From: Octopus vulgaris
Lineage: Eukaryota
DNA length: 64,000 nt
Assembly: GCA_951406725.2 (NCBI GenBank)
Contig: OX597823.1
Coordinates: 66,526,001 to 66,590,000 of the forward strand
Reading direction: 5' to 3'
This document shows, in pieces, positions 1,141 through 54,603 of this stretch (position 1 is its first letter; every line of letters starts with the position of its first letter). The position numbers and the translations under genes were made by a program. The notes below the pieces were generated by a model. The model made no database searches. It saw nothing but the letters and a program-made list of their open reading frames with translations, and was not told the DNA's origin.

Positions 1141-1330
1141 TATTTCTTTACTACCACTAACGGATTAGGTCGATTACTGGTACTTAATTTATCGATAACT
1201 GGTACTTAATTTATCGACCCCGAAAGGATGAAAGGCAAAGTCTACCTCAGCGAAATTTGAACAGCGGCAGACGAAATACGATTACGCATTTCGCCCGGCG
1301 TGCTAACGTTTCTGCCAGCTCGCCGCCTTA
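1141..1330 (-). mobile_element. SINE family A, internally rearranged, ~18-bp TSD
   Basis: TSD tgacgttc(t/g)aacatttcc at 1123-1140 and 1331-1348. Confidence 0.85.
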
Positions 1331-3769
1331 TGACGTTCGAACATTTCCACTAATAAGTCGCTCAGGGTTGTTACTTTATTTCTACCGAAATAAATTGAAT
1401 TTTAATTCAGTCGCATTTGAACTCGGTGATGAGAGTAAAAACAAGAAGAACGCAGAATTCTGTCCGACCCATTAACAGCTTTGTCAATTAATGAAGGGCG
1501 TGGAGAGAAACGCTACTGCCGTGCTGGAACTCCAATTCATTTTAAGCCCCTGTTGACGATTTTAGTTCACAATTTTGTGTCTCGTGAAAACGCAGCGAGT
1601 TTGATATATTGAGCAGCAACATGAGTTTGTATACGCGTTGTACTACATCATAGAGAGTTAAATGTCGTTACCACAAATTCTCAATGTTACTGAAAATTCA
1701 ATATCGTCCAAAAATTAGACCCATTTATAAATTTTTATTGGAAATGTAATCATTTTCAACCGGTTGAAGACGCAAAGTAATCACGTTTATTGCTCGTTTG
1801 AATAATTTAATGGACGACAAAATCGCTTGATCATTAACTGAACTCCAGTGCACGTTTGCCATTGACTTCTTTGAAGTATGACAATTTGCTCGGTATACAT
1901 TGTTCTGTTATAAATATAGAAACGTCTCAGAAATGTACCAAAAATACATTGGTTTCACATACAAAATGTATGATATTTCTTTTCGCTTACCTAGCATAAG
2001 TAACAATTATACCATATAAGAACCGGACCTATACAAGCAAAATGCAATGTGAAGTTTCTTTGTAATCCTATATTTCTTTTAAAGAATAGGAAGGGAACAC
2101 TTATACAAATTATGATGCGGAGATGGGTTCCTTTGTAGTCGTTAATCATTTTTCGTTGACCTGTCAATGATTTTCATTAGAAATGAGTTATAGAGATTGT
2201 CATGGACAAAATAAAGCAACAAATTTGAAGAAAGCTTCGAAAAGATTTCAGTCACACTTCTTAATTGAACATGACGAGATGAAAAAAGTTTTCTACTTAA
2301 TGGAATATATGAAAGTGTAGAGACAGAGTAATGGAAAGTATTAGCTGTCTACATTTACTTGAAAAGGAGTTACCTAATTAGGTCAGACATTTCAATTCGA
2401 TCACGAAATCTCGACGAAGTGTGGAAAGTACTTTTAATGTTATTTATAAAATAATTCGTGTACTATTTCTTAGAAGAATGAAAGGGAATTTAAAAAGATA
2501 ATGGAAAATGTGGAGATATTGTTTACGAGTTATCGATAAATATATTTACAAATATATCGGTTAATATACTTGCAATTATTGAAATGAAATCAGAATTTGT
2601 AGTATATCAGCTGGCATCACATACACGCTACAGAAACATAAAACAAACTTAATTACAATGATTTTCACAAAGTAGCACAAGGTAAAACATGGCTGTGATC
2701 TATTGACTCCACAAAAGTACATATTTTTGCTATCATTGGGTCAACAGAAAAAAATACAATTATAATTCAGAAGTAACTAGATTAGATACACGAGCTACGA
2801 CAGTCAAACACACGACCAATATTGTTAATCAAATGGCTTCACCATTATTGTACAATTTTCTTAAGTCAAGTGCAAAAGAGAGTTAGCAAGCTGCATTGTA
2901 CTATGTCGTATTGTCCTCTAACTCTACACCATTTTTTTGTTGCATTATGAAAATAAGCGTATCGAAAGCACCTGAGAACAACTTTGGAGTTTTGTGTGTG
3001 ATGATGTAGCACACATTCTAATGTTTTATGTAAAACTTTTCACAACTTTGCTTCGTGTTTTTATCGAGATTTTGTAGCAACAGCAATAATTCTAATAGTT
3101 GAATCAATTATTTGGAACAAGGCCAAACAGGAGTGGGTAATCGATTGCATCAACCGCAATATTGGACTGGTAACTTATCATATTGACCCCGACGGGATGA
3201 AAGGCAAAGCTGTTCTCAGGGGAATTGAAACCCACAACATGAAGATCCGGAAGAAATGCCGCAATGCTTTTTGTCTGACACTTTAACAATGATGCCAATC
3301 CGCCGACTTTCTAACACAGATACAAGGTCAGAAATTCGAGAGATGTTTGGCGATTAGAGAGTTTCCAGTATTTATCCGGTACATTACTTATCGACCACAA
3401 AATAGTCAGAGGCAAACCTTTGTTTCATCGGGATTTGAAGACAATAAAATATTCTTGAAAAAAACAGCATATTTGTGTCACTTTTCAATTTTCTACTAAA
3501 TAAAATTCTTAAATTCTTAATTTTGCCAATTTTGCCAATTCTGTATTTGCCAAAAAGGCTCATATTACAGATGAATTAAACTTTAAAACAGAGATTATAC
3601 AAATGTTGAGATGTATACGACAACGTTATAGATAACCAAAGAGGTCACAAATTCATACAATGAACATATTAAAAAATTCAGTTAGGATAAAAAAAAAAAA
3701 GGGCAGAACAAATATTTTGACAAAAATGAAACAATGAAAATACACAGCCGTGAGAAGTGACTAATACGG

Positions 3770-4900: not shown

Positions 4901-5844
4901 CTTCATTTTCTTATCAGAAGCGTTATGTTTAAATCAGTTTATTGTCGCTTACTGTTAAGATAATCATTATAACTACACTCATGTCCATATTTATAAAAAG
5001 AGAAGTCATTATTTTTTCAATGAAATTGCCTATCTTACTACAAAGTATTCTTGTTCAAATTTATGTATTCTGCATCGAGTCCCAAATCTACAAGGACAGC
5101 CTTAGCTTCATGAAACGAAAAATAAAATTAAAGTCTAATTAAAATTATTCCCAGTTCACTGTAACAATGTATGAGACTAGGAGATTTTGTGTGAATTTTT
5201 GAAAATAATATTCGTACCAATATTTTTCAGTAATGTGTCCAAGTAACTGCGTAAATTATCTCCTTTCCTATCATAGAAGACCAGACTTAATTTTATACAT
5301 TCAAACTCTAAGCGGTATTCACAAACTTACATATCGACATGCTCAGCTATCTAACGATGTATTTGACACTTATTTTCCTTGACTAGCTTCTTTCAGTTTC
5401 TGCTTTAAGAGACTGGCTCTATTTCTACAGACTTTATAAATGGGTCTGTTTCTCCTTGTTTAACTAGCATTTTTCAAACCATCGTTCTTTTCTCAAAATT
5501 CTTTCTCTAAATTTTCCTTTTTATTTACATTTTGTATACTTATCTGTGTGTCATTCAATTCTTTCTTCTCTCTCACCGACTTCTCTTAAAAGTTCAAAAA
5601 TTATAGTATTCATTATTCTTGTCGCTAGTCACGAAATCTATTTGCCTCACCGAGGACCTGGATCAGTTATTGATTAAGTCCGCACAATTATAATAGTTGC
5701 ATATATTTTGTAGGGAATGGAAGAATCATAGCTCTTGCAGTTACAGAACAGGTGTCCACGGATAATTTGTGGGGATGAAACAAACTGCAATAAGTGTTTC
5801 AATCAGGTATTCTACTATTGAAAATTAACATCATCGGAACTAAT

Positions 5845-6040
5845 AAATGTTTCAAATTTTGGCACAAGGCCGGCGGTTTCGTGGAAGTGGGATAAGTCGA
5901 TTACATAGACCCTGATGCTCAACTGGTACTTATTTTCATCGACTCTGAAAGAAAGAACGCACAGTCGGCATCGGTGGAATTTGAACTTAGAACCTATGCT
6001 GGGCATCTTTCCAGGCGTACTAACGATTCTTCCAGCTCCC
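5845..6040 (-). mobile_element. Degenerate SINE family A (tail type 3)
   Basis: ttcaaattttggcacaaggcc...aagtcgattacatagaccc...actggtactt. Further degenerate copies lie near 3110-3305, 11150-11340, 38430-38790 and 63255-63395. Confidence 0.7.
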
Positions 6041-6062
6041 TACCCTACTCTCTCTCCTCATT

Positions 6063-6493
6063 CTTTTACTCTTTTACTTGTTTCCTTGTTTCAGTCATTT
6101 GACTGCGGCCATGCTGGAGCACCGCCTTTAATCGAGCAACTCGACCCCGGGACTTATTCTTTTGTAAGCCCAGTACTTATTCTATCGGTCTCTTTTGCCG
6201 AACCGCTAGGTAACGGGGACAAAAACACACCAGCATCAGTTGTCAAGCAACGCTAGGGGAACAAACACAGACACACAAACACACACACGCATATATATAT
6301 ATACATATATACGACGGGCTTCTTTCAGTTTCCGTCTACCAAATCCACTCACAAGGCTTTGGACGGCCCGAGGCTATAGTAGAAGAAACTTGCCCAAGGT
6401 GCCACGCAGTTGGACTGAACCCGGAACCCAGAACCATGTGGTTGGTAAACAAGCTACTTACAAGCTACTTATCACACAACCACTCCTGGGCCT
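6063..6493 (-). mobile_element. SINE family B: tRNA head, CORE-like GCACCTTGGGCAAGT, internal TA/TG microsatellite, (AGTAAAAG) tail; resembles octopus OR-type SINEs
   Basis: Near-identical to several other copies in the window. The family name is an inference. Confidence 0.85.
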
Positions 6494-12724: not shown

Positions 12725-13670
12725 TTTCAGCACATGAAAAGAAGAAAGCATCATACTCGGTAACAAAACAGACAAGGGAATATATAAGTGAATTCCAAAT
12801 ACAAATTCCAGAATTTGACGTACTAGAAATAAGCAGAGAAACAGCTAAGCGTATGAAAACCTGTGCTAAAACTGCTGCCTCAGATATTGTTACAAATAAA
12901 TGGCAAGAAAAACCTCTCAATAGAAAATACCCAAAGACAGCTAATAATGCCGATGTTGACAAAGCTCTTACCCTTCAATAGCTAATGGCTTCTGGCTTAA
13001 AATCAGAAACAGAAGGTTGTATCATAGCAGCCCAAGATCAATGCTTACCTACAAGAATCTACCAGTCCAACGTATCTTCCCAACATGTTGTGTATATCAA
13101 CAACAAAATGAAACCATTGATCATGTCTCTTTGTGCAGTCTTCTTGTGCCTACAGAGTATCTCAATAGGCATGGTCGAGCTGCACAACATATTCACGGGG
13201 TAATTTGCAAAAACCTGGATCTGCCCCATGATAAAAACTGCTGGGAACATAAACCACCTCCAGTGATTGAAAATGACCACATCTCACTCCTCTGGAACTT
13301 CACCATACAAACTGACAGAAAGATATATGCAAATAGGCCAGACATTATATGGAAAGACCTTAGACAAAAATCATGCCTCCTAATGGATATGACTGCCCCT
13401 ATCGATATAAACGTATCTGTCAAGACCTACCAAAAACTGAGTAAGCATAAAGATCTTCAAATAGAAATTAGCAAAATGTGGAACCTGAAGACTAAAACAA
13501 TACCTGTTATCATAGGTGCCCTTGAAATGATAGCAAAAGGGGCTTGTTGCTACGTAGCTCAGATACTAGGAAACCCCAAAATGGCAGAAATTCAAAGGAT
13601 AGTGTTGATGGGAACTACCCATATCCTACGTAAAATACTGTCTGTGTAATCTCTAATTTTAAAACAAACA
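12725..13670 (+). mobile_element. Degenerate 3' part of an R4/Dong-like (RLE-type) non-LTR retrotransposon ending in (AAT)n
   Basis: Translates (with frameshifts and stops) to WQEKPL...GLKSETEGCIIAAQDQ...ETIDHV..C...EYLNRH...LWNFTIQTDRKIYANRPDII...LLMDMT...KLSKHKDLQIEI, i.e. CCHC plus PD-(D/E)xK endonuclease. Followed by (AAT)n. Confidence 0.85.
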
Positions 13671-13767: not shown

Positions 13768-14401
13768 AGAAGGAATATATTCACAGACATGACAGAGTTG
13801 GACAGAGTTGGACAGAGTTGGACAGACTTGGAACTTACATACATTGGAAGCTATGCCAACATTATGGAATAACAACAGAAAAAAGATGGTATAGGCACAC
13901 ACCAGAAAAGGTCACAGAAAACGAGAAAGCAACCATACTCTGGGATATGCCGATACACACAGATAGAGAAATTAAGGCCAACAGACCAGATATAGTTGTC
14001 AGAGACCATGAAGAAAAAAAAATGCTTTCTAATTGATGTATCAGTACCGGCAGATGACAACGTGTCTCTAAAAGAAATGGAGAAACTCTCAAAATACAAA
14101 GACCTGGAAATAGAGGTAACTAGAATGTGGAATCTGAAAACAGAAACAATTCCTATCATAGTAGGTGCATTAGGCATGATAAAAAAATATTCAGACAAAT
14201 ACATAACAAAAACACCAGGACTTACAAACACATATAACATACAGAAAATTGCACTACTGGGCACTGCACACATCCTACGCAGAACACTTTCCATACAATA
14301 ACCATCAGAGCATCACAACAAATCACAGCACATACCCAAGGCACACAGAGCTGTGCTCGGTAGTGAAGTGAAAGCACGCTATAAAAATAAAAATAAAACT
14401 A

Positions 14402-14404
<3 letters not shown>
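13768..14404 (+). mobile_element. 5'-truncated R4/Dong-like element (family B), young copy with RLE domain and 3'UTR
   Basis: KEYIHRHDRV..GTYIHWKLC...LWDMPIHTDREIKANRPDIVVRD / CFLIDVSVP...EKLSKYKDLEIEV...GTAHILRRTLS. 3'UTR ends ...aaaactactg|aataataat. One frameshift in an A-run. Confidence 0.9.
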
Positions 14405-14482
<78 letters not shown>

Positions 14483-14485
<3 letters not shown>

Positions 14486-14779
14486 GACCTGGAAATAGAG
14501 ATAACTAGAATGTGGAACCTGAAAACAGAAACAATTCCTATCATAGTAGGTGCATTAGGCATGATAAAAAAATATTCAGACAAATATATAACAAAACACC
14601 AGGACTTACAAACACATATAACATACAGAAAATTGCACTACTAGGCACTGCACACATCCTACGCAGAACACTTTCCATACAATAACCATCAGAGCATCAC
14701 AACAAATCACAGCACATACCCAAGGCACACAGAGCTGCGCTCGGTAGTGAAGTGAAAGCACGCTATAAAAATAAAACTA

Positions 14780-14782
<3 letters not shown>
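14483..14782 (+). mobile_element. Short 3' fragment of R4/Dong-like family B inside (AAT)n
   Basis: Near-identical to 14098-14404; flanked by AAT repeats on both sides. Confidence 0.92.
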
Positions 14783-14834
<52 letters not shown>

Positions 14835-14861
14835 GTAATAGTAATAGTAATAGTAATAGTA

Positions 14862-14929
<68 letters not shown>

Positions 14930-14932
<3 letters not shown>

Positions 14933-15226
14933 GACCTGGAAATAGAGATAACTAGAATGTGGAACCTGAAAACAGAAACAATTCCTATCATAGTAGGTGC
15001 ATTAGGCATGATAAAAAAATATTCAGACAAATACATAACAAAACACCAGGACTTATAAACACATATAACATACAGAAAATTGCACTACTAGGCACTGCAC
15101 ACATCCTACGCAGAACACTTTCCATACAATAACCATCATAGCATCACAACAAATCACAGCACATACCCAAGGCACACAGAGCTGGGCTCGGTAGTGAAGT
15201 GAAAGCACGCTATAAAAATAAAACTA

Positions 15227-15229
<3 letters not shown>
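14930..15229 (+). mobile_element. Short 3' fragment of R4/Dong-like family B (tandem duplicate of 14483-14782)
   Basis: Same 5' truncation point (aaagacctggaaatagagata) and shared variants. Confidence 0.92.
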
Positions 15230-15937
<708 letters not shown>

Positions 15938-16223
15938 CAATTCTTTTTTATTGGCCACAAGGGCTGACACGCATGATTACATAAAGGGACAGGACAGGAC
16001 GAAAGGTTACAAAGGGTTTTGTCCGTTTGTTAAAAAATCCGTGTAAAAAAAAAAAACTTTAAAACAATGATTATTAAAACAATGAAAAACTCCCAAAAGG
16101 GGGAGACGTCTCGAAATGTTCCCGGTGGAAAAAACCCTACAAAAGCCAACGGGAGCCTGGTCAAAAAAAGGGGGTGTAGAGAGTCCCCTTTCTTCTCCTT
16201 TTACATTACCTTTTTCTTTGAAA

Positions 16224-19200
16224 TCACAGGCGAAACCAGAGAACTGGTCCATTTATACAGGCCAGTCTCGCACAATTCACCCACCTTTCATAAAACTTGC
16301 TATCGGACAGCACTTTCCTCTCTAACCTCATCTTCCTTTTCAAGTGAAACTTGAAAAAGTTGATGAGGCCTTGACCAAAGAGGAAAGTGTCTGTCTTTAG
16401 CCCTTTTAAACGAGTCCACCACACGACCTCTTTCGCCACAGCCACTAGGCACAAGAAAACGGCCTCGCCCTCCTTGTTAAAGGAGGTCGGCGGGGCAATC
16501 TTCACTATGGATTCGGCAGATAGTCGGATCCGTCCTACACGTGACAGTAGCTGTTCGACATAAACCCATATTTCAGCAATACTCGGGCACTGGACGAGTG
16601 CGTGCAGAACGGTTTCGTCGTCCTGGCAACACCTCGGGCAGGCCCGGCTGACGGCACTTCCGTGCCGGTAGAGTTTATCTCGAACAGGCAGAGCCCCTCG
16701 GTAGCACTGCCAGGCGAGAGACCTCTGGAAATTATCCATCGGCCCCGGCCCGAAAGTCCTCCCGAACAGACTGCTCAGTTCGTCGTCTTCAACGCCTAGA
16801 GTTTCCCCGAGAACGTCGTCGCATTTTTCCTCCACTAACCCTCTATAGAACGCTAGAGTGGAGCTGTAACCGACCGCATTGCCCGCCTGGTGGAGGGCGG
16901 AGAGGGCTTGACGGCACTCGAGGTGCCAAGCGCCCTTTCTCGGTCTACGTTTGATCCAGGTCTGCAGCTCCGTCAAAGAGACGAGCTGCGGAAAATCGCG
17001 TCTGACAAAAGACGACCACACCTGTTCACCGTCTAGGAAGCGCTTGAGATGCCGCAGCCTGAGCGCATGTCTGCGCAACAGCAACCACGGCATTCCAAGG
17101 CCTCCGTTCAGCGGTCGTTGACAGCAGATGGATCGCCTGACCAGTGGCACCTGACCCTTCCACAAAAAGTCGAAGAGCAGACGTACCAGCTTGGCCAACC
17201 AGCGGTTGGGACAAGGGACGACGGTCAAGCGGTAATAGATGACGGATGCGATGTACGCATTCGCCACCTCCGCTCGACCTTTCAGGGACAGCTTCCTCTC
17301 GGCCCATTTCTGGGTGAGACGTGCCACTCTGCTCGTCACCTCTTCCCAGTTCTTATCCACCTGGAGGTCCGGACCGAACCAGACCCCGAGCAGTTTAACG
17401 GGTCCGTCTGTCCAGCGCCCTACGACGCTGTTGGACGGCATGGGCTTGCCTCTCCAGGTGCCCAGTTGCAAGCCCACAGACTTTTCCGCGTTAATCTTTG
17501 CCCCTGTCACCGCTTCGTACTGGTTTAGCGTCTCGCCAATCAGGCTAATGTGCCTGTGGCTCGACACCACCACGGTGACGTCGTCGGCATAAGCAGACAC
17601 GCTGTTTCCGCCTCCTAGATCGCGCGGGATGCCCCTCAAAGCCTCCAACTTGCGCAGTAATGGCTCGAGAGTCAAAATGTACAAGAGGGAGGAGAGAGGG
17701 CATCCTTGGCGGACCGAACGCGAGATGTCGAACGGTTCCGAAAGGTGACCGTTCACCCGTATCACCGAGCAGATGTTGCTGTATAAAGCAGCGATCCACC
17801 CGCGGAAGACTGGACCGAAGCCGGCTGCCTTGAGGACAGCTGCCAGGTACTGATGGTCGACCCTATCGAAGGCTTTACTCTGATCCAAGTTGATCAAAGC
17901 CCCACCCGCGCCAGCGTCGTTACCCACCCTCTCTATGATGTAGCGCATGAGATGGAGGTTGTCGTGTATCGACCTGGTCGGCACGGCGCATGTCTGCGTC
18001 CCGCCGACCAGCTTGTCCACGACAAGCGCCAATCTCTTGGCTAGCACCTTGGCCAAAATCTTCAACTCTGCATTGAGCAGAGTGATGGGCCGGAAATTCC
18101 CTATAACGTCCCCCTTGTTTGGGTCCTTCTTTAGCAAAGCCACCACCCCTCGACAGACAAAAGCAGGAATTCTCCCGTTTTGCTGCCAGTTGCAGTAGAC
18201 GTTTGCCAACAGGTCCGCAAACAAGTCTGGCATCGAAAAGTAAAGCTCGTAGGGCAGACCATCCAAACCCGGCGATCTACCTCTCGTGCAACTCTTCATC
18301 GCTTCCTGTACTTCCCAGGCAGATATCGGTCCTTCGCAGCACTCCGCCTCGCTGTCCGAGAGTTGCGGCAGTCCGTCCAGGTACACACCGAAGTCTGTAC
18401 CGTTGGTGTCCGTTCCACCGCTCGTCCCAAACAGTTGAGCAAAGTGCCGCTGAAGCACCGTACACATCTGCTTCGGTTGGGTAACCTCGCGCCCGTTCTG
18501 GTCCACCAAAGACCGAATGGTTGCTTTGTTGCCTCGCTTCGCCTCCGCCACGCGGGCCCATCGAGCGGCTCTAGTCCCCTCCCCGTTTAGCGAACGTGCC
18601 TTAGCTCTGACAACGCAGCCTTCGTGTTTGGCGTCGAAGTGTTGGTCGAGGGCCAACCTTGCCGCCAACACGTCGGTCGCGATGCCAGTGTCAAGAGCCT
18701 CGTCTAGTTTCTTAACTAAATCCCGCTCTCTCTTTCTACGTTCAATAGCTAGAGTCTTACTATACCTAATCGACTCTACTCTAATTGCTCTCTTGAGGGC
18801 AAACCACCAGTTGTTGTTGATGATTGCCCCCGTGAGCGCCCGCTTAACTAGTAAACTAATCCGGTCTCTGTAAGCTTTGCACGCCGTTAACGACGCGTTC
18901 AGCTTCCAGTAGCCGGGTCCCTGTCTATGTAGCCTATCTAAGTCGACCGTACAGATCACTAATTTGTGGTCCGTATATTCGACTAGGTGGAATTGTGGAC
19001 ACCCTACGCTGTCCTTATCCGCTGGCCTACAAAACACTCTATCTAAGTACGATCTAGACGACCCGATGCGGTTTGTCCAAGTCCACATTGGCACATTCGG
19101 GTTGTCTAGTCGAAACCTGTCGGACAGCTGAAAGCGGCCGAGTAGGTTGGCGAGGCTCTTGCACCCTCCCCCTCTCCTAACAGACGCTCCCCTGCCCACC

Positions 19201-19658
19201 CGATCGAAACGTTCGTCTAAGACAGCGTTCCAATCCCCAACTAGTACTAGAGTGCGTGACGTTCCCAGGAAAACTTCCAGACGTTTGAAATAATCCGACT
19301 GCCCTGCTCCTGTCGGAGCGTAGGCAGCCAGCAGTCTGAAAGCACCGCCGTCACTACCGTCGACGTCGAGGACCACCAACTTACCTTCCGGATCCAAGAA
19401 GACTGTCCTTATTTTCAGGTCCAGGCCCTTCCGAAACAACACCGCAGTACCACCACCGCCCGCTCCCGGCCGACACGGAGATAGAAATATCTCGTATCCG
19501 CCGAAAAGGGCTGCGAGTTCCTGCGGGTCGGAGAGCCTGGTTTCACTGATGGCTGCTACATCCACATCATGAAACCTCAGGTCGTTTAACAGGTGACCCT
19601 GTTTCCAAGGTGACCCGAGGCCTCTCACATTCAAGCAACCGATTCTAAGATTTGCCAT
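16224..19658 (-). CDS. ORF2 polyprotein, 1144 aa: APE endonuclease + reverse transcriptase + C-terminal CCHC (zf-RVT-like), L1/Tx1 clade
   Basis: APE motifs GCLNVRG, AISET, VGDWN, SYLDR and TDH. RT motifs SPGLDGLP, FRPITLLN, LDQSKAFDRV, RQGCPLS, YADD and KLLG. C-terminal CPRCCQDDETVLHALVQC. No stops or frameshifts. Confidence 0.96.
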   Translation of the reverse strand: MANLRIGCLNVRGLGSPWKQGHLLNDLRFHDVDVAAISETRLSDPQELAALFGGYEIFLSPCRPGAGGGGTAVLFRKGLDLKIRTVFLDPEGKLVVLDVDGSDGGAFRLLAAYAPTGAGQSDYFKRLEVFLGTSRTLVLVGDWNAVLDERFDRVGRGASVRRGGGCKSLANLLGRFQLSDRFRLDNPNVPMWTWTNRIGSSRSYLDRVFCRPADKDSVGCPQFHLVEYTDHKLVICTVDLDRLHRQGPGYWKLNASLTACKAYRDRISLLVKRALTGAIINNNWWFALKRAIRVESIRYSKTLAIERRKRERDLVKKLDEALDTGIATDVLAARLALDQHFDAKHEGCVVRAKARSLNGEGTRAARWARVAEAKRGNKATIRSLVDQNGREVTQPKQMCTVLQRHFAQLFGTSGGTDTNGTDFGVYLDGLPQLSDSEAECCEGPISAWEVQEAMKSCTRGRSPGLDGLPYELYFSMPDLFADLLANVYCNWQQNGRIPAFVCRGVVALLKKDPNKGDVIGNFRPITLLNAELKILAKVLAKRLALVVDKLVGGTQTCAVPTRSIHDNLHLMRYIIERVGNDAGAGGALINLDQSKAFDRVDHQYLAAVLKAAGFGPVFRGWIAALYSNICSVIRVNGHLSEPFDISRSVRQGCPLSSLLYILTLEPLLRKLEALRGIPRDLGGGNSVSAYADDVTVVVSSHRHISLIGETLNQYEAVTGAKINAEKSVGLQLGTWRGKPMPSNSVVGRWTDGPVKLLGVWFGPDLQVDKNWEEVTSRVARLTQKWAERKLSLKGRAEVANAYIASVIYYRLTVVPCPNRWLAKLVRLLFDFLWKGQVPLVRRSICCQRPLNGGLGMPWLLLRRHALRLRHLKRFLDGEQVWSSFVRRDFPQLVSLTELQTWIKRRPRKGAWHLECRQALSALHQAGNAVGYSSTLAFYRGLVEEKCDDVLGETLGVEDDELSSLFGRTFGPGPMDNFQRSLAWQCYRGALPVRDKLYRHGSAVSRACPRCCQDDETVLHALVQCPSIAEIWVYVEQLLSRVGRIRLSAESIVKIAPPTSFNKEGEAVFLCLVAVAKEVVWWTRLKGLKTDTFLFGQGLINFFKFHLKRKMRLERKVLSDSKFYERWVNCARLACINGPVLWFRL

Positions 19659-19696
19659 GTCTCAAAGTAGGGGGAAAAAAAGGAGAAAAAAAGGCT

Positions 19697-20504
19697 CTAC
19701 TTACTGTTGTTGGTGGTGGGGGTGGCTCCCTTGTGCTTTTGCACGGGTGCTTCCACAATGTTTTTATAAAGTTTCTTCGAGAAACTTTTCCCTAGCGATC
19801 CCACATCGTTAGGGAATATTTGTTTGATTTCATCATATGATTTTGCATTTATTTTTATTGTGAGAATGTGTGCTGGTGGTGTGTTTTGTGTTGGTATGAT
19901 GAAATCGGTTATATTTGTACTAGTTTTGTTTTTTAAGTACTCCACTAGTTTTTGGTTCTTTGTGTTTATTGATGTAATTGTGTCTGTGTGTGTTTGTGTG
20001 TGTGGCAGTGGCAGTAGTGGTGTCGAAAGTGTTGTTGTTGTTTGTTGTTGTGAGTGTGTGTTGTTGTTGTTGTTGTTGTTGATGTTGGGAAGCACTATTT
20101 GTTCGTGCTTCCCCTGTAAATCTTTTTGTTTCTTCCTCCTTTTCTTCTTTGGAGGCACTATACTCCATTCTCCTTTGTTGGAATCAGAGCTCGCACAATC
20201 CGAGATCTCTTCATCCGGCAAAGGAATGGTTGAGGGGTCTGCTTCAGTAGCAGGACGAAAAGTTTCTGGTTCCACCGGTATCGGTGGTGCCGCTGCTCCT
20301 GTTACTGTTGATGTCGCTGCTGTCGACCTTCGAGGTACTGGTGTCGGTGTTGGTTTGGTGGTGGTTGTCGGTGTTGGTTTGGTGGTGGTTGTTGTTGTTG
20401 GAGGTGGTGTTGCTCGTCTTGGTGCTGGTGTTGGTGATGGTGTTGGTGGTGTGGCAGCCTTTGGTGTTTCTTGCTGTTTTTGTTGTTTCTGTTGTTGTTG
20501 CTTG

Positions 20505-20541
<37 letters not shown>

Positions 20542-21565
20542 GCTGCTGCCTCTTGCTGAAAGCCTCCATCCTCTTTTTGTGAATGGGACAGTCCCTCTTT
20601 AAGTGGCTTTCGCTGCTGCAGAGAAAGCATTTTGGCTTTCGCCCCTCCACAGCAACGTTTAGCCTAGTGCCGTCCGGCAAACTTACGAAATCAGGGACTT
20701 TACTTATATTCTCTTGCTGAATTTGCGCAAGAAGCAGCACTCCCATCCCCAACCAGTTTTTCGCCCTCACTCTCCTGACATCTAGAATGGTGGTAGTGTC
20801 CTCTATATCATAGAGGACAGCTGCCACCAGCCATGACATATTTAATTCAGGGGGGACGAGGTCGATTTTTATTTTTGTAACTCTTCGCCCGAGGTGGGTT
20901 GGAATTAGTAACAAATTCTCAGTTTGCAAGGGCGAAATGGCGTTCGCCCTTGCCAGCTCCTCTGTTGGGAAGCGAACCTCCACGGTTCCAAAACGCTTCC
21001 CCTTGGTTACGTAGCTCTTTTGGGCCCAAATGGGCTTTAGAGCTATCTCCAACTGTTGGGGTGTGGCATTTGTTATTCTTTTTAGTTTTCTGTCGAAAAC
21101 TTTGTAAATTATTGTTTGCTTGTTGGTGCTTTCAATCACCTCTTGTGGAGTATTGAGGAAGATACCATTGCCATCCTTCCTTAACAATTCCTTCGCTCTT
21201 TTCACATCTTCTAGAGTTATCTTAACTTCCTCCGAAATTTGCTTCGCAGCAGAAGCAAAATTGTTGGAAGTTTTTTCTTTTATCTCCGTGTCAATGTTTG
21301 TGATGATTTTTGTATTTGTTTTTTCTCCCTCCTCCTTCCTTACCAAAGCATTGGGTGAAGGCAGAGGGGGAAAATCAAGAATTACGTCGAACGCGACGTC
21401 ATGACTTGCATTTTCCTTTTGAACCGAGCGCGTGCTCTGCGGTTCGGAAGGAGAATCTTTGTTGCCTTTTAAGGCGTGAAGTGGGTGTTTTGTACGAGTT
21501 GTGCGTGTTTGCGGAGGGAGTGTATTTTGAAGGAAGGAACAGCCAACTGTTCGCTTCATAGCCAT
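19697..21565 (-). CDS. ORF1 nucleic-acid-binding (gag-like) protein with zinc knuckle
   Basis: Open frame directly upstream of ORF2. First ATG is at 21565 (MAMKRTVG); the track starts at an upstream TTG at 21607. Contains CX2CX4HX4C (CFLCSSESHLKRDC) after an RRM-like region, then polyQ, a Pro/Thr-rich linker and basic KKKRRKK. Confidence 0.88.
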
Positions 21566-21797
21566 GTTTTTTCTTGTTGTAATATTCAAAATGTTGAAAA
21601 ATGTCAAATGTTCAAAATTTTCAAACGCAATTTCACCCCGAATGGGGCAAAATTTCGCCCAACCGACGAGCTCCGCAAGAAGCCGGTCGGTTTGGCTACA
21701 GAAATATTAAAAAATATTCAAACCTATTAATAGATTTCCAATGAAATTGGTGTCAAATTCACGGAGCTGATTCACGTACGTCTAACGGCGTCGGAAG

Positions 21798-25374
<3,577 letters not shown>

Positions 25375-25882
25375 TTTCGTTTCAAGCGGCTGTAATTTTG
25401 AAGAAGACTTGAAAGTGCATATTCTCAGAAAATATTCTGAATCTGCTTCGCTTTCACTTCTCAGAATGTATGAAGAGAAGTATGTTTGCGACTTATTAAC
25501 ATCACGCCCTAGAGGAATGAATAAGATGACAGGAGAATATATTCAAATTTATACAATGGTGTTTGATTAAATATTCTTCTTTCTCTCTTTTTCTTTCCTT
25601 TTTTTCTGTCGTCTTCTTTTTCTGTTCTTTTCTTTCCGACTGTTATAAAATTGTAAATTAAAAACAGATGATGTCATTCCATCAACGTGTGGACGCTGGT
25701 TGCTCTCGTTCGTACATTACGTTTAAATTCCTGTAATTTTGAATTTTTATCGCTTCTTATTTTGAACTTCACAAAGACAGACGTACTGTTGAAATATCGT
25801 TCACCTAATAAAAATCTTACGATCGAATCTTGCTCTTCGTCTTGACTGTTTACCTTTGTGAAGAGTTACGCCAATCCTTTTT

Positions 25883-26813
25883 AAAATAGAAGAAGAAGAA
25901 GAAGAAGAAGAAGAAGAAGAAGAAGAAGAAGAAGAAGAAGAAGAAGAAGAAGAAGAAGAAGAAGAAGAAGAAGAAGAAGAAGAAGGAGAAGAAAAGAAGA
26001 AGAAGAAGAAGAAGAAGAAGAAGAAGAAGAAGAAGAAGAAGAAGAAGAAGAAGAAGAAGAAGAAGAAGAAGAAGAAGAAGAAGAAGAATAGAAATGTATA
26101 ACAAAAAACCCATCAGGGAAGAATGCTGCGAGATGATAAATGAAATGAAAAAAGAAATAAAGCAAAAAAAAAAGAGTATTAATATGAATGAAAAGATGAA
26201 AGAAATTAATGAATTGGGAGAAGTGAATGCAAAATGATAGTGAGATACGTAAATATAAGAAGATGCAGAAATTAGCGGGAGAAAGAGAAAGGAATGACCT
26301 AAATAGTAAATAACTACGACGGAGATTTAAATGATTAGATAAATTGGAGGCTATATGCTGTAGAGCGAAAGAAATAAAGCAAGGGAACAATGTATATGAA
26401 AAAAAAAAGAGAGGCATTTTCCACTATAGATACAAAGCCTGAAATGAAGTGGGAAGGATATAATCGAATGCATCGACCGCAGTGCTAAATTAATAATTAT
26501 TTTATTAACATCGAAAAGAAGATAGGTTAAGTTGACCTCGCTGGATGTTGAACTCAGAACATAAAAATGGACGATATGCCGCTAATTGTATTGTCTGGCA
26601 TGCTAAGGGTTGTGCTAGACCGATGACTTATAAAACAAACTTAAATAATGGTTTCAAATTTTGCCACAAGGGAACCCTTTTGAGGGAGGGGATGAGTCGA
26701 TTACATCGACACCAGTGTTTCACTGGTACTTAATTTATCGACCTCTGAAAAGACTAGAAGGGCAAAGTCGACCCCCAGCGGAATTTGAACTCATATCGGA
26801 GCGACGGGCGAAA

Positions 26814-26844
<31 letters not shown>

Positions 26845-27730
26845 AAGAAGAAGAAGAAGAAGAAGAAGAAGAAGAAGAAGAAGAAGAAGAAGAAGAAGAA
26901 GAAGAAGAAGAAGAAGAAGAAGAAGAAGAAGAAGAAGAGAAGAAGAAGAAGAAGAAGAAGAAGAAGAAGAAGAAGAAGAAGAAGAAGAAGAAGAAGAAGA
27001 AGAAGAATAAGAATTGTATAACAAAAAACCCATCAGGGAAGAATGCTGCGAGATGATAAATGAAATGAAAAAAGAAATAAAGCAAAAAAAAAAGAGTATT
27101 AATATGAATGAAAAGATGAAAGAAATTAATGAATTGGGAGAAGTGAATGCAAAATGATAGTGAGATACGTAAATATAAGAAGATGCAGAAATTAGCGGGA
27201 GAAAAAGAAAGGAATGACCTAAATAGTAAATAACTACGACGGAGATTTAAATGATTAGATAAATTGGAGGCTATATGCTGTAGAGCGAAAGAAATAAAGC
27301 AAGGGAACAATGTATATGAAAAAAAAAAGAGAGGCATTTTCCACTATAGATACAAAGCCTGAAATGAAGTGGGAAGGATATAATCGAATGCATCGACCGC
27401 AGTGCTAAATTAATAATTATTTTATTAACATCGAAAAGAAGATAGGTTAAGCTGACCTCGCTGGATGTTGAACTCAGAACATAAAAATGGACGATATGCC
27501 GCTAATTGTATTGTCTGGCATGCTAAGGGTTGTGCTAGACCGATGACTTATAAAACAAACTTAAATAATGGTTTCAAATTTTGCCACAAGGGAACCCTTT
27601 TGAGGGAGGGATGAGTCGATTACATCGACACCAGTGTTTCACTGGTACTTAATTTATCGACCTCTGAAAAGACGAAGGGCAAAGTCGACCCCCAGCGGAA
27701 TTTGAACTCATATCGGAGCGACGGGCGAAA
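25883..27730. repeat. Tandem duplication, ~920-bp unit: (GAA)n + unique sequence + SINE pieces
   Basis: 26088-26814 is nearly identical to 27008-27730. Confidence 0.93.
26648..26814 (-). mobile_element. SINE family A (tail type 3), truncated by a tandem-duplication junction
   Basis: Body gatcgacc...gcaaagtcgacc; a longer copy is at 27568-27770. Confidence 0.8.
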
Positions 27731-27770
27731 TACGTTAAGCATTTAGTCCAGCATGCTAACGATTCTGCCA
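27568..27770 (-). mobile_element. SINE family A (tail type 3)
   Basis: Homology to other family-A copies. Confidence 0.8.
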
Positions 27771-28639
27771 AACGAAAAATGTCGACAAAGGAATCATTTA
27801 CACAAAGGAGGAAATCAAAGAATGTGAGATAGAAACAGCAAATGTATTGTGAGACAGTAAAAGAGTGAAGAAAATCAAAGAGAAATAGAATGTAAAATGA
27901 CGATAATTATGAAAAAACAAATAAAGATAAACATTTTCGAAACAATGATAGAAAAGAATGAGGGAGGGAAAGTGAGAGAGAAGGGTTCAGGGAAGAGGCG
28001 GAATTTAAATAGAGATTTATGGGAAATAAAGAGACAGAGAGGTAAGAATTTAAGATATAAGTGCAGAATTTAAATATATATATATATATATATATATATA
28101 CTACATACATGCACACACACACATAAATATATATATAAAAGCAATCATGCAGTTGGAGTGATAGAGTGATAAGCCGAAATATGGGCAAATTTGATCTTTA
28201 TAAAACGTTTGTGCTTTTCCTGTGATCAGGCTAAGTGCATCAATAATTGCCGAAAGTTTAATGGTGGAAAATTATTTCATCGAGTAATCAAAAGCAGCTT
28301 ACCGACAACAGTCGATGTTTGGTTATAATGCAAAGGCTGTTTCGGAAATATTGTCTGTTCGATAAAACTATTGATCAATAATAGGTTAGTTAGTGTTAAC
28401 ATATTCACTACGAGAAACATTAAAAAGTGAACTGGAGTAATTTTGAGGCGTCGATGAATTAACTTCCGGTACTTAGTTATCTTTACGCATTTTCTCTGTT
28501 CTAATGCCGCAAGGATCAGATTTTTTTTTAATATCCTTCAATGGATAAGACAAAAGAAATATCAATCTAGTAGTGAAATAGATTTACTAGACAAATCCTT
28601 ATGGTTAAATTTCTGCCTGTGGTCGAAACATATTATTAT

Positions 28640-28840
28640 TGAGCTGGCAGAATTGTTAGCACGCGGGGCGAGATGCATAGCGGTATTTCGTCTTTCTTCA
28701 CATTCTGAGTTCAAATGCCAATGGGGTCAAATTTGCCTTTCATTCTTTCGAGATTGATAAATTAAGTGCCATTGAAACGCTGGGCCCAATATTATCAACA
28801 AGTCCCCACCCCACAATTTTTATCACCAGTAGAAAGGGTT
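28640..28840 (+). mobile_element. SINE family A followed by (ATT)n
   Basis: gagctggcagaattgttagcacg...gtagaaagggttattgttattatt. Confidence 0.8.
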
Positions 28841-28841
28841 A

Positions 28842-28944
<103 letters not shown>

Positions 28945-30500: not shown

Positions 30501-32099
30501 TCTTTCCTTAATTTAATGCAATGCAGTAGTTTCTTCCGAATGCATATGCTCTGATTTCAAATTCGCCGGACTTAGGTTAATTTTCAAACTTCCAGCGCCT
30601 TTGAAATCACATACTGGTCAAACATTGAGATCAATGGTATCAACTAAAATGTATCACTATGAATTGTTGGGCTTGTGTCTAAAGGAAATAGTTTATCATT
30701 ATTATTACTCAGAACTACCGCCACCAATGCGAATTCCTGCGAAGGAATACGTTTCCTCTAGGTTCCTGCAGAGAACAAATATACAGTTTTAAAAATGCTG
30801 AACAACTTCTGAAGATATGTAACTGATAAATACCCATATGATTAATGGAAACAATTGCCAGACACATTAGAGCTAACAAATGAGTGTCAACGAAGGACCG
30901 ACACACTGAAGTGTACACTCCCAAGTGGAATTTGCTTGTCAGAAATATGTTCAAATATAGATTTCATCTCAAATATCTGATAGTTTGGCATTGTCGAAGT
31001 GCAATTCCCGAATGAAGACCTCGCAGTACGGCATTCCGTTATCCCCTCTCGGAGTGAGAAAACTGTTCTCATTCTCATTTGGATGGGATTTAGGGTGTGC
31101 TGTCAGAAATGATCAGCTTGTGTATTGTAATGTGTGTCGTTTTGGAAGGATGCGTGCGACACACCTCTGAAAGTTAAAAATAAATAGACTAATAAATTCG
31201 TCCCGAGTAGGTTTGTCGGTTCAGTTACAGGTGAAAGCAGAACAACAGAGAAAATCCAGTTTTAATTGATCAGATTAATGAAATAACAATCTACGTTGCG
31301 GAGACGACGAGCATCTGAAAGCGAAGGTATCACCTCATCTTTCAAAAGAATAACGTAAGTAGACCTTATTTTCACGCATTCATTAACTGTGGCCATACAG
31401 AGAATAGGCATTATAGATGCAGGTGATGTGGGTTCACCTGAGAAGAAAAGCTACCTGTTGAATGTCCTCATGCCACTACAGATATATATAGATGTAGTGC
31501 TTGATATAGTGTTTGGACGACCTGTTAATTTCGTGCGGATTGAACGGCAAGTAGTTGGATGTGCTTAGCAAAATTTCAACCTCATAAATTTTAGATTTTA
31601 TAGAAATGGCAGCCTGTCACTCTCTTTTCATGTTGACAAATAACAATTGAATGAGCTTAGCAAAAATCTATTAATAATTTTTGGAAGTGGTTGGTTTAAA
31701 AGTACGTTGCCAACATCAACATAAGTTATTTATCCTTTAGATACTACCCTTTATATTTTAGTACATATAAACGTTGCCCTTATAGAAATAAACAAAACAA
31801 TATATTAACGAGTCTTTACATAATAGACGGTCGTCATCAGCGAAGCACTGTCTTTCTATGTACGAAAGACGTATCTCTTCTCTTGTTCTTTCCATTGTTA
31901 GCCAAGTGTTATGCAAATGTATACTACAATGCTACAAGAACCATCAATACTATCTCGACCCTGTTCTTAGACCTGGAAAATAAACTTCAATGTGCCTGGA
32001 AAATAAACTTCAATTTTATTTTATTTTTATGTAATTTTAGAGTCATTATTTTAAACAATCGATCGACTATTTGTTTGATAATGTCAATATTATATAAAT

Positions 32100-36167: not shown

Positions 36168-36173
<6 letters not shown>

Positions 36174-36536
36174 CCATATGATAAGAACCTTGCTTCTCAA
36201 CCACACGGTTCCGGATTCCGTCCCATTACGTGGTACCTTGAGCAAGTGTCTTCTACTATAGCCTCAGGGTGACAAAAGCCTTGTGAGTAGGTTTGGCAGA
36301 TGGAAACTGAAAGAAGCCCGTCTTACATACATATATATATATATATATAAGTGTTTGTGTGTCTTTGTGCCTATGTTTGTCCCGCCACCATCATTTGACA
36401 ACCGATGTTGATGTGTTTACATCCCCGTATGTAAACGGTTCGGCTTACAAAGAATAAGACCTGGGTTCCATATTTTCGACTGAAAACCCTTTAATGGGAG
36501 CAGTCAAATGACTGAAGCAAGTAAAAGAATAAAAGA
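36168..36536 (+). mobile_element. SINE family B
   Basis: Homology to 54197-54562. Confidence 0.8.
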
Positions 36537-37020
36537 ATATACACGCACACATGCAAAAGTATACATATATGTTCTACTCAGAATACACGAGGTTTGAACT
36601 CTCAAGCTCTTAAAAGAGTCAATGTAGTGTCGAACTACACAGTATTTTCCACAGGAATAGAAAGACAAGCAGACAAACACGAAACCATAAAAGAAATAGA
36701 AGAATGAGGTCCAGTAGCGAATGGGTAGCATATTATTCGATGCAAGAGAATAAAACGGAAGCTGACTTCAGTATTATACAAACACAGATCATAGAGAAGC
36801 AGGACAGACATCAAAAGGATAGTGAGCCGATATTCTAATTATTCATCGAGTTGACAGATAGTAAAAAGGGTATATGTGTGCGTATGTGTGTGTGCGTGTG
36901 TATGTGCGTGTGTGTGTGTATGTGTGTGTGTGCATGTGTGTGTGTATGAATTGTTATGTGCATATAAACACACACATATATATGTATACATATATATAGG
37001 GAGAGAGGAGGAGGGAGATT

Positions 37021-43282: not shown

Positions 43283-44162
43283 ACAAATTAAAACCTATAC
43301 TTTCTAACAAAGCTGAACTTCGTTTAAGAAGCACAGAAATGTGTATTTTTGTATCTTTTCCTTGATAGGCATTTATACAAAAATATTTTCCTTTCTCTTT
43401 CTCCTAAAATGTAATACGGTATTTTAAGCATAATTTTTTTCTCTTGTTTATCTTATTACATTGTTTCCCCATCTTTTTAAAATCCTCATGCTCATTGTTT
43501 AGTGATATGATATCGGACACGTTTGTGACATCGGCAAAAGAACTATTTTTTTGTTGTGATTTTCCTGCTGCAGCTGTTATTAGTATCACCATAGTTGCTA
43601 CAATTACTATTTCATATTGGTTTTCGTGTGGTGTGTGCCAATTAATAGTTTGCTACTACTGACGATTTTAAAAGCGTCTTTGCTTAGCAAGTAACTTTTC
43701 ATTTTGCTTCTATTCTTGTTGCTGCTATTGTTGTTGTTGGTGTTATTGTTGATGTTGTTGTTGTTGATGTTGATATAATTGTTAGTAGCTGTTGTTGACA
43801 CTATTTTTGCTGCTATCGATTCCATTGGTGCTATTTTTAATTATTGGCACATCAGCAGTATTATGTAGAAGAAAATGACTGCGAAAGGCGTTTCACTTTC
43901 TAAACCTCTCATTTCCCTTTCCTGTTCACGAGTCGTCAAAGCTGGCATCACTTTGATCTTTTTCTCTGAAGATGTTGACCCTTTGGGCGACTGACACAAA
44001 CGGAGGATTCTGATCAGCTGAGAAACGTGGTAGGGTAATTAAATCAAGAAAAACGGAATTCTCAAACAACCAGCACAACCTCACGAAGCTTCGAAAACAT
44101 GTTTAGTTTCGGCAATAACCAACAATAACAACTGAAGCAGCAGCAGCAGCAATAATAATAAT

Positions 44163-44390
44163 AATCCTTTCCACTATAGGCACAAGGTCTGAAATTTGGA
44201 GGGGGGCAGAGATAATTCGTTTGTATTGACCCCAGTGCGTAACTGGTACTTAAGTTTATCGACCCCCCCCCCCCCGAAAGGATAAAAGGCAAAGTTGACC
44301 TCAACGGAATTTTAAGTCATAAAGAAGCGACGGGTGAAATACCACTCGGCACTTTGCTTGGTGTGCTAACGATTCTGCCAGCCCGCCACT
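44163..44390 (-). mobile_element. SINE family A, tail type 2, ending in (ATT)n
   Basis: Same head and body; tail CAGACCTTGTGCCTATAGTGGAAAGG|ATTATTATT. Confidence 0.85.
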
Positions 44391-46461: not shown

Positions 46462-46695
46462 TATTTCTTTACTACCCACAAGGGGCTAAACACAGAGAGG
46501 ACAAACAAGGACAGACAAACGGATTAAGTCGACTACATCGACCCCAGTGTGTAACTGGTACTTAATTTATCGACCCCGAAAGGATGAATAGCAAAGTCGA
46601 CCTCGGCGGAATTTGAACCCAGAACGTAACAGCAGACGAAATACCGGTAAGCATTTCGCCCGGCATGCTAACGTTTCAGCCAGCTCGCCGCCTTA
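46462..46695 (-). mobile_element. SINE family A, full length, 16-bp TSD
   Basis: TSD cgacatggttaaaata at 46446-46461 and 46696-46711. Confidence 0.92.
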
Positions 46696-48375: not shown

Positions 48376-48407
48376 TTCCTAATTCATGTATTTCTGGCTT
48401 TCTAATC

Positions 48408-48567
48408 AGGCGTGAGTGTATGGCAAGAAGCTTTCTTCCCAACCACACGGTTCCAGGTTCAGTCCCACTGTGTAATAACTTGGGCAAGTGTCTTCTACTA
48501 TAGCCTCAGGCCAAATAAAGCTTTGTGAGTGGATTTAGTAGACGACAGGAATTGGAAGAAGCCTGTC

Positions 48568-48602
<35 letters not shown>

Positions 48603-48814
48603 TTGTTGTTCGTTTGTCACCCTCTATCGCTTGACAACCGATGTTGGTATATTTACATCCTCGTAACTGAGCGATTCGGCAAAAGAGACCGATGGAATAA
48701 TTACTAGGCATACAAAGAATAAGTCCTGCGGTCGATTTGTTCGACTAAAGGCGGTGCTCCAGCATGGTTGCAGCCAAATGACTGAAACAAGTAAAAGAAA
48801 AAAAAAGAATAAAA
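48408..48814 (+). mobile_element. SINE family B
   Basis: Homology to other copies. Confidence 0.85.
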
Positions 48815-48939
48815 GGTTACTAAGACGTTTTAGTATTTCATTATAAACAAACTGATTAAATGTTATCTACAAAAAAATTCTGATGCACAGATTAAAGTTG
48901 TTTACTGCTATGAAGAACAAATAATTGTTTATTCGTTTG

Positions 48940-49720
48940 CATCGCAGTGGAGGTCAAATAATTACGTATAGTGGTAGAAATTAAATAATATTCTCCTGTT
49001 GTAAGGCTCAAATAATCAGGTATATTTCTGAAAATCGAATTGTAATGTATTGCTATAAAGGTATAACAATCATGTATGGATGTGGAAATTATATAACCAG
49101 GTACATATTCCTTTACTACACACAAGGAGCTAGACACAGAAGGAACAAACAAGGACAGACACACGGATTAAGTCGATTACATCGACCCCAGTGCATAACT
49201 GCTACTTAATTTATCGACCCCGAAAGGAATTTAAGGCAAAGTTGACCTAAGCAGAATTTGAACTTAGAACGTAACTGTAGACGAAATACCTGTTTCTTTA
49301 TTACCCACAAGGGGCTAAACACAGAGAGGACAAACAAGGACAGGAAAACGGATTAAGTCGATTATATCGACCGCAGTGCGTAACTGCTACTTATTTAATC
49401 GACCTCGAAAGGACGAAAGGCAAAGTCGACCTCAGCTGAATTTGAACTCAGAACGTAACGGCAGACGAAATACCGCTAAGCATTTCGCCCGGCGTGCTAA
49501 CGTTTCTGCCAGCTCACCACCTTAAATATATGATATTATACCGTTGTGGGATTCATAAAACCGTTTAGTGTTGTGGGGATCAGATAATCAAGTATCACTG
49601 TGGCAGAGAAATCAATATGTATTAGCGCAGAGGTCGAATAACTGTGTATAGTTGTGGAGGTCATATAATAGGATATTGATGGAGAAGTCAAATAATTAGG
49701 TATCACTGTGGAGGTCATAC
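48940..49720. repeat. Degenerate ~30-bp minisatellite split by the SINE dimer
   Basis: Recurring gtggaggtca(a/t)ataat-like units about every 30 nt on both sides of 49105-49525. Confidence 0.6.
49105..49525 (-). mobile_element. Head-to-tail dimer of SINE family A
   Basis: A full copy (49290-49525) is joined directly to a 5'-truncated copy (49105-49290). Confidence 0.88.
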
Positions 49721-50905: not shown

Positions 50906-50924
50906 TAATAATAATGATAATAAT

Positions 50925-51130
50925 CATTTTTACTATATGCACAAGGCCTAGAATTTTTACGGAGGAGAATAGTCGATTACATCGACCCTAGTGGTCAAAT
51001 GGTACTTATTTACTGACCCGAAAGGATGAAAGACGAAGTCGACCTTGGCAGAATTTCAACTCAGAACGTAAAGACGGACGAAGTGCCGCTGAGGATTTTG
51101 CCCGGCGTGCTAGCGGTTCTACCAGCTAAG
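50925..51130 (-). mobile_element. SINE family A, tail type 2, abutting an (AAT)n array
   Basis: Homologous to 44163-44390. Confidence 0.8.
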
Positions 51131-53674: not shown

Positions 53675-54092
53675 AGTGGTAAGTAGCATGCTTAGGAGCC
53701 ACATGGTTCCGGGTTCAGTCTCACTGCGTGGCACCTTGGGCAAGTGTCTTCTACTATAGCCTCGGGCCGACCAAAGCCTTGTGAGTGGATTTGGTAGACG
53801 GAAACTGAAAGAAGCCCGACGAATATATGTATATATATGTATGTATGTATGTGTGTGTGTGTGTGTGTGTGTGTATGTTTGTGTGTCTGTGTTTGTCCCC
53901 CCTCCCCACCCAACATCACTTGACAACCGATGCTGGTATGTTTACGTCCCCGTAACTTAGCAGTTCGGGAAAAAGAGGCTGATAGAATAAGTACTAGGCT
54001 TAGAAAGAAAAAGTCCTGGCGTCGATTTGCTCGACTAAAGGCGGTGCTCCAGCATGGCCACAGTCAAATTACTGAAACAAGTAAAAGAGTAA
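53675..54092 (+). mobile_element. SINE family B
   Basis: Homology to other copies. Confidence 0.88.
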
Positions 54093-54196: not shown

Positions 54197-54561
54197 CATG
54201 GTTCCGGGTTCAGTCCCACTGCGTGGCACCTTGGACAAGTGTCTTCTACTATAGCCTCGGGCCGACCAAAGCCTTGTGAGTTGATTTGGTAGACGGAAAC
54301 TGAAAGAAGCCCGTCGTATATATGTATATATATATATGTATATATGTGTGTGTTTGTGTGTCTGTATTTGTCCCACTAGCATTGCTTGACAACCCATGCT
54401 TGTGTGTTTACGTCCCCGTCACTTAGCGGTTCGGCAAAACAGACCGATAGAATAAGTACTGGGCTTACAAAGAATAAGTCCCGGGGTCGAGTTACTCGAT
54501 TAAAGGTGGTGCTCCAGCATGGCCGCAGTCAAATGACTGAAACAAGTAAAAGAGTAAAGAG

Positions 54562-54562: not shown

Positions 54563-54603
<41 letters not shown>

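Follow-up and report, generated by a model that had tools for sequence, protein, structure and literature searches.

The tail of SINE-A, a short element repeated within the 64,000 nt of Octopus vulgaris DNA analysed here (hereafter the window), resembles the 3' end of a full-length L1-group LINE in the same window. We think it fairly probable that this tail originated from a Tx1-type LINE lacking poly(A), that its last ~30 nt are recognised, and that SINE-A is mobilised by a sister family of the LINE with a different target. A sequence-only reading had named a Tx1-type partner. The Tx1-type origin of the tail was retained, given a 3'-anchored match, a module specific to SINE-A and TSDs of 15–18 bp with a sign of a preferred target, but the assignment to this particular LINE family was not, as the tails are 71–74% alike with gaps and the LINE copy lies in (ATT)n and not at GGTATT. 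Tail sharing is itself a known principle, the match is weak, and the LINE copy in the window is probably not the direct partner.

According to our reading, a SINE body would have captured its tail from a Tx1-type LINE that lacks poly(A). In the proposed mechanism, ORF2 protein would attach to the final ~30 nt of the SINE RNA, consisting of a small hairpin with a CUUGU loop and an A-rich end, would nick a preferred DNA site and would start reverse transcription with the SINE RNA as template. A chimera of U6 snRNA and SINE-A would represent one such event, preceded by template switching or RNA ligation. For stringent LINEs, it is established that reverse transcription is target-primed and that the tail is recognised (PMC3747384; here and below, citations refer to the accessible parts of each paper). 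Stringent recognition of this tail by ORF2 is inferred.

Structure and classification of the LINE

The LINE (15938–21798, minus strand) is ~5.86 kb long, with both ORFs open and (ATT)n, in sense direction, on either side. ORF1 (19697–21565, minus strand; 622 aa counted from the first likely ATG) carries a C-X2-C-X4-H-X4-C knuckle, matched by Pfam zf-CCHC at E=0.046, under the curated cut-off, and its C-terminal half is of low complexity. Its closest Atlas clusters are CCHC proteins (scores 0.90–0.92), and no Pfam match to the L1 ORF1 family was obtained. A CCHC knuckle in ORF1 instead of the vertebrate L1 ORF1 domain is a feature of the Tx1 clade. A link between ZCCHC3 and Tx1 ORF1 was looked for in the literature and not found.

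ORF2 (16224–19658, minus strand; 1144 aa) encodes an APE endonuclease, a reverse transcriptase and a C-terminal zf-RVT domain (PF03372, PF00078, PF13966). Compared with solved structures in the PDB, it matched human L1 ORF2p best (E=4e-52, residues 4–861), followed by R2 (3e-23), in a comparison of 11 matches that contained L1 and R2 only and from which RTE, CR1 and L2 were absent. The closest named relative of the reverse transcriptase region is an Argonauta hians protein with 71% identity. In a reverse transcriptase tree that included no named Tx1 reference, the LINE fell together with Argonauta (100/99) and, in a looser grouping, with proteins of fish and sea cucumber (97/96); the label Tx1-like comes from the architecture and from features of the clade. 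The LINE is an L1-group element with intact ORFs and without poly(A).

The 3' UTR (15938–16223, minus strand) measures 286 nt, lacks poly(A) and gave nothing near the gathering score in Rfam. Its terminal 70 nt (15938–16007, minus strand) form the tail that resembles SINE-A, with the informative part at ~15941–15969; the LINE end quoted in the sequence-only reading is exactly the reverse complement of 15938–16000. The family is multi-copy: in run X2, 7,892 contigs matched 1,063 nt of the LINE, 980 of them at at least 99%; a metagenome scan returned one locus, from which the 3' end was absent. Of 24 loose ends listed out of 1,684 for the LINE, none lay at its 3' end. Summed contig depth in all four runs was higher over the last ~100 nt of the LINE (15974–16045) than over the adjacent upstream UTR. 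Other families may share the terminal segment, depth being a poor measure of this. Related LINE fragments elsewhere in the window comprise a reverse transcriptase piece (74%, 63575–63688) and an ORF1 piece (35%, 30930–31100).

Genomic surroundings of the LINE

The window is AT-rich and microsatellite-rich. The LINE is placed between two long (ATT/ATC)n arrays (15230–25400 in total), one downstream at 15230–15937, which comes after a Dong/R4-like 3' end, and one upstream at 21799–25400, the end of which is approximate. It possibly belongs to a Tx1 family targeting (ATT)n, judged from this one copy. Fragments of a second LINE type, which we take to be Dong/R4-like from its motifs, were found at 12960–13649 and 14018–15229; they end in (AAT)n and have a weak zf-RVT match. 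At 25893–27732 a 925-nt tandem duplication with 98.8% identity was observed, its breakpoint at about nt 53 of a SINE head and beside a (TTC)n run.

A second SINE family of ~400 nt, SINE-B, is present at 59615–60020, 6063–6461, 53676–54092 and 54197–54603, with further copies at 48407–48815, 36170–36570 and 56852–57109. It has an inner microsatellite and carries the CORE motif CCTTGGG, as named in PMC5786205, and its middle resembles the 5' half of the SINE-A tail.

SINE-A copies and tail variants

The head or body of the SINE was detected by blastn at ~18 places in the window, six of them with an A-type end. The remaining copies have tails designated T2 or T3, which terminate in short or long (ATT)n. 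All three tails, A, T2 and T3, sit on one shared head and body and diverge from the body at the same point. Examples of T3 are at 44155–44390 (minus strand), ending in (ATT)n, 50915–51130, 28635–28880 and 26415–26627, and examples of T2 at 5840–6044 (minus strand), 27560–27775 and 3095–3307.

Full SINE-A copies are located at 46462–46695 (minus strand, 234 nt), with a perfect 16-bp TSD, and at 55686–55919 (plus strand), with a possible 15-bp TSD in TA-rich flanks. A third lies in the tandem at 49105–49524 (minus strand), where the 3' end of a full copy is joined to nt 51, a GGTATTT site, of a headless second copy. A fourth forms part of the U6 chimera at 60211–60550 (minus strand), with full-length U6 snRNA (60550–60444) 5' of SINE-A (60442–60211). 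The four full copies are 88–90% identical to one another. The copy at 1141–1330 (minus strand) has an 18-bp TSD and is missing most of its tail, including the hairpin; either the tail was lost after insertion or the copy was inserted without a hairpin, the latter of which would weigh against strict recognition.

The 3' terminus of SINE-A is AAAGAAATA, without poly(A). The tail letters given earlier were recovered at 60211–60272, 46462–46523 and 55858–55919, with the difference that the closing GG already forms the beginning of the TSD. The TSDs given earlier for SINE copies were confirmed in four of the five SINE-A insertions, and both elements, SINE and LINE, are poly(A)-less; no TSD was found for the tandem at 49105–49524 or for the six other SINE copies tested. 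In run X2, 117,490 contigs were matched on 88 nt of the A tail, which is not a copy number. With regard to a tRNA-derived (SINE2) origin, the SINE has an A-box-like motif at nt 12–14 and no match to the strict B-box pattern. No tRNA was detected in the SINE by ARAGORN or Rfam, no Rfam family fitted it, its body matched nothing in the searchable MetaSINE supplement files, and a motif-based literature search for the sequences found nothing.

Similarity between the LINE end and the SINE-A tail

Five SINE-A tails were compared with the LINE end under three scorings against dinucleotide shuffles, the control that had been proposed for the claim, and 14 of the 15 tests gave p<0.05 (range 0.0003–0.115). 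In the same controls p<0.05 was reached in 0/3 tests for the SINE-B tail, 0/3 for the Dong-like tail, 3/6 for T3 and 1/6 for T2. The SINE-B and Dong-like tails were ruled out as LINE-like by these shuffle tests (0/6) and by locus ranking. In a scan of 12,600 windows of 70 nt on both strands, with the A tails masked, the LINE end was the top non-self match to the A tail (109.7, followed by 98.7). With 110-nt windows and four scorings, it ranked 1, 1, 13 and 3 of ~920 loci, and when gaps were cheap two SINE-B copies ranked above it.

In the alignment of the majority A tail with the LINE end (z=5.2), 42 columns are identical, 9 are mismatched and 19 contain gaps, and SINE-A tails are 71–74% identical to the last ~60 nt of the LINE over 54–57 columns. 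The LINE tail contains 9 extra nt relative to that of SINE-A. The match starts at the point of divergence of tails A, T2 and T3 from the common body. When full SINE-A copies were compared by blastn with the 5.85-kb LINE, the best match lay in its last 55 nt in three of four cases. The E-values ranged from 0.004 to 0.26 against the LINE alone, and the best was 0.069 at a library size of 100 kb. At the library cut-off of E<=0.01 (settings of PMC11481361) one of four copies passed against the LINE alone and none of four at 100 kb. When the window was searched with the LINE tail by plain blastn, E was 0.46. Taken together, the shuffle, ranking and blastn results indicate that the similarity is probably real, yet short and diverged. 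For comparison, the pairing of BivaCORE-SINE2 with L2 was accepted at 72% identity (PMC4824008, PMC11481361, PMC4758252).

The two halves of the tail behaved differently. A series of sequence blocks had been described as collinear between the two elements, and this was upheld for the 3' half, where the LINE ranked first of 2,069 loci by a narrow margin (last 29 nt: LINE 65, runner-up 62), but not for the 5' TGTCC..TGTCCC half, where it ranked 57 of 2,102 (first 33 nt: SINE-B middle 92 vs LINE 59.7). The informative signal, which is modest, is confined to the last ~29 nt, comprising a small predicted hairpin and an A-rich end. Among 24 of 295 loose ends listed, none showed a LINE-like continuation beyond the SINE tail.

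The T3 tail also resembles the LINE end (z=2.8; rank 3 of 1,435), the T2 tail not significantly so (p=0.18), and the A tail is the variant closest to it. Since T3 resembles the LINE end and the A tail in turn resembles T3 (p=0.029), part of the A tail may derive from within the SINE family. Carried further, this would make the resemblance partly chance, the A tail a SINE-internal mosaic of the SINE-B middle and the T3 end, and another clade, for example RTE, the source of mobilisation. Such a mosaic would account for the better score of the 5' half on SINE-B, the rank of SINE-B under cheap gaps, the relatedness of the A and T3 tails and the failing E-value at library scale; RTE is moreover abundant in octopus (PMC8967140) and capable of 16–18-bp TSDs, as documented in hagfish (PMC7245038). 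It does not explain why the LINE end comes first for the 3' half; SINE-A also lacks the terminal microsatellite that is usual in RTE-related SINEs (PMC6007223), and the GGTATT bias described below fits a sequence-specific endonuclease. We consider this alternative rather unlikely, with a small but real chance of being correct.

Tail origin from a Tx1-type LINE is our preferred reading, and the reverse direction, in which the Tx1 lineage gained its 3' end from an abundant SINE by recombination or read-through and the tail is no recognition signal, is highly improbable: the SINE tail is far commoner than the LINE in run X2 (117,490 contigs on 88 nt and 7,892 on 1,063 nt, respectively), but the LINE UTR has no SINE body upstream of the tail and the direction that has been documented is the exchange of tails on a constant SINE body (PMC4824008, PMC5786205).

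Predicted terminal hairpin

A hairpin with a 3-bp stem and a CUUGU loop is predicted in the LINE tail at 15954–15964, and the same small hairpin appears in the predicted folds of all four SINE-A tails examined, with a loop change in one copy. Folding of the shared tail had been suggested as a check for a conserved stem-loop. The same 3–4-bp hairpin was indeed predicted, but the tails did not outperform shuffled sequences in folding (z −0.8 to +0.7). One pair of the three is swapped, being G-C in the LINE but C-G in SINE-A; over 12 tails the pair statistics were not significant, the covariation being equalled in 190/500 shuffles, and the T2 and T3 rows were out of register in this alignment.

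The pair probability of the hairpin was 0.33 when the LINE tail of 70 nt was folded and 0.03 with the whole UTR, and among full SINE-A copies it ranged from 0.01 to 0.92. A stable hairpin common to all three SINE tails was not supported, with pair probabilities of 0.00–0.11 in three T2/T3 copies. The window contains 125 CTTGT pentamers, 14 of which have a closing stem of at least 3 pairs, and 5 of the 14 lie in LINE or SINE-A tails. On the basis of these predictions the terminal hairpin is a candidate recognition signal.

Insertion sites and the U6 chimera

TSDs were matched at 16/16, 17/18, 17/18 and 14/15 letters in four of the five SINE-A insertions. L1-clade LINEs produce TSDs of 7–18 bp and RTE-clade LINEs mostly of 7–15 bp (PMC6007223). 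The U6 chimera, already described in the sequence-only reading, is real: full U6 and SINE-A, both in sense, are enclosed by a single 18-bp TSD that starts with GGTATT.

The SINE head contains GGTATTT at nt 51. GGTATT follows two of six SINE-A ends, in the tandem at 49105–49524 and at 60189–60210 of the U6 chimera, at a background of 0.00026 per position; at the other four ends 2–4 of the 6 letters match. One of the two junctions could be a tandem duplication instead of an insertion. In run X2 the consensus of loose ends past the SINE end, from 81 contigs, approximates the SINE head site with an agreement of 0.42, and in run X18 the core of that site was present in 1 of 76 contigs. SINE-A possibly targets GGTATT in its own head, as seen in this small sample. 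Tx1 families typically insert at specific targets (PMC4494074), and the GGTATT bias fits a sequence-specific Tx1 endonuclease.

The LINE copy in the window is inserted in (ATT)n, whereas SINE-A is inserted at GGTATT or other sites, and (ATT)n follows none of the six SINE-A ends. Because of this placement, and since its tail differs from SINE-A more than the SINE-A copies differ mutually, a sister family is proposed as the partner. That the very family of the window LINE mobilises SINE-A directly is unlikely. The copy is intact and its family multi-copy (7,892 contigs in X2), TATT is present in both targets, and the letters present in most family contigs at positions 15992 and 15993 agree with the SINE. 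These two letters improve the match only slightly, however: of 621 random double changes at adjacent positions, 86 gained as much, and the expectation of a clearly strengthened match from the family-majority letters was not borne out. The 9 extra nt inside the LINE tail, the different targets and the 88–90% likeness of SINE-A copies, which are nearer to one another than to the LINE, also speak against direct partnership. With their (ATT)n ends and weak resemblance to the LINE end, the T3 SINEs could, as a speculation, be passengers of the window LINE's family.

In the U6-fused copy, a variant 9-nt stretch at 60266–60274 (minus strand) is the reverse complement of the copy's own 3' junction (p=0.0015, with random flanks from the window as reference), and a 6-nt stretch of the LINE matches its (ATT)n junction in antisense (p=0.03–0.04). 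No such match between tail and junction was present in four of the five SINE-A copies. Of the six elements tested four show no match, and that tails help to choose targets is a tentative idea. Its fuller form, a poly(A)-less animal Tx1 group in which a small 3' hairpin picks passengers and the RNA tail also helps to choose the DNA site, is one that we regard as doubtful. If true, targets could be switched by a change in the RNA tail, and SINE-A would be passenger and landing site at once.

Comparison with known systems

SINE–LINE tail sharing is textbook knowledge for clades other than the L1 group. Tails of the L1 clade account for 3 of 58 listed tail-sharing SINEs, all from maize or Chlamydomonas (PMC3472496, PMC3747384). 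These cases, ZmSINE2 and ZmSINE3 with LINE1-1_ZM in maize and sorghum and SINEX-3_CR with L1-1_CR in Chlamydomonas, are like ours in having a 3' end of ~45–80 nt common to an L1-group LINE and a SINE and a predicted hairpin. The octopus case differs in coming from an animal and a Tx1-like lineage, in lacking a poly(A) or poly(T) end, in its smaller hairpin without significant covariation, and in the presence of a target bias.

For the crocodilian SINEU and Tx1-Mar (PMC4494074), mobilisation by Tx1 was likewise proposed, on the basis of a common target preference, and snRNA is found at the 5' ends. SINEU has poly(A), the accessible text reports no LINE with a common 3' end, and the target is Mariner, whereas SINE-A has a LINE-like tail, no poly(A) and, apparently, its own head as target. 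Stringent L2, CR1, RTE and Nimb pairs (PMC4824008, PMC11481361, PMC4758252, PMC4176376) share with SINE-A a modular structure, exchangeable tails and a LINE-like tail. The partners of bivalve SINEs are CR1, CR1-Zenon, L2 and Nimb (PMC11481361), unlike the Tx1-like partner considered for SINE-A; Tx1 is not mentioned in the accessible main text of PMC11481361 or PMC4824008, and partner LINEs of MetaSINEs are given as unknown in the latter.

Chimeric retrocopies of U6/L1 and snRNA/Alu (PMC4494074, 10.1101/2025.02.02.635956) also have a full U6 5' of a retroposon within one TSD; in the octopus chimera the 3' part is a poly(A)-less SINE of an invertebrate. The Tx1 families Kibi with (TC)n, Koshi with (TTC)n and those of crocodilians with (TTCC)n or (TTTC)n (PMC4494074) are, like the window LINE, flanked on both sides by a microsatellite, which in our case is (ATT)n and known from one copy. 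No animal SINE with a Tx1-derived tail was found in the literature searched; Repbase, Dfam, SINEBase, subscription journals and supplements could hold one.

Significance

Recognition of a tail instead of poly(A) would be unusual for the L1/Tx1 group in animals. Whether L1-group enzymes were ancestrally strict and lost this property in mammals and plants has been posed as an open question, with plant and algal examples only in the accessible text (PMC3472496, PMC3747384). A poly(A)-less Tx1-type LINE from an animal, intact in its ORFs and with a SINE as natural passenger, would allow that question to be tested. In O. vulgaris, SINEs make up 11.6% of the genome and 13 L1-Tx1 families are listed as recently active, their partners not being named in the accessible text (PMC13282606). 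The partnership proposed here, if true, would name the engine of a very abundant octopod SINE.
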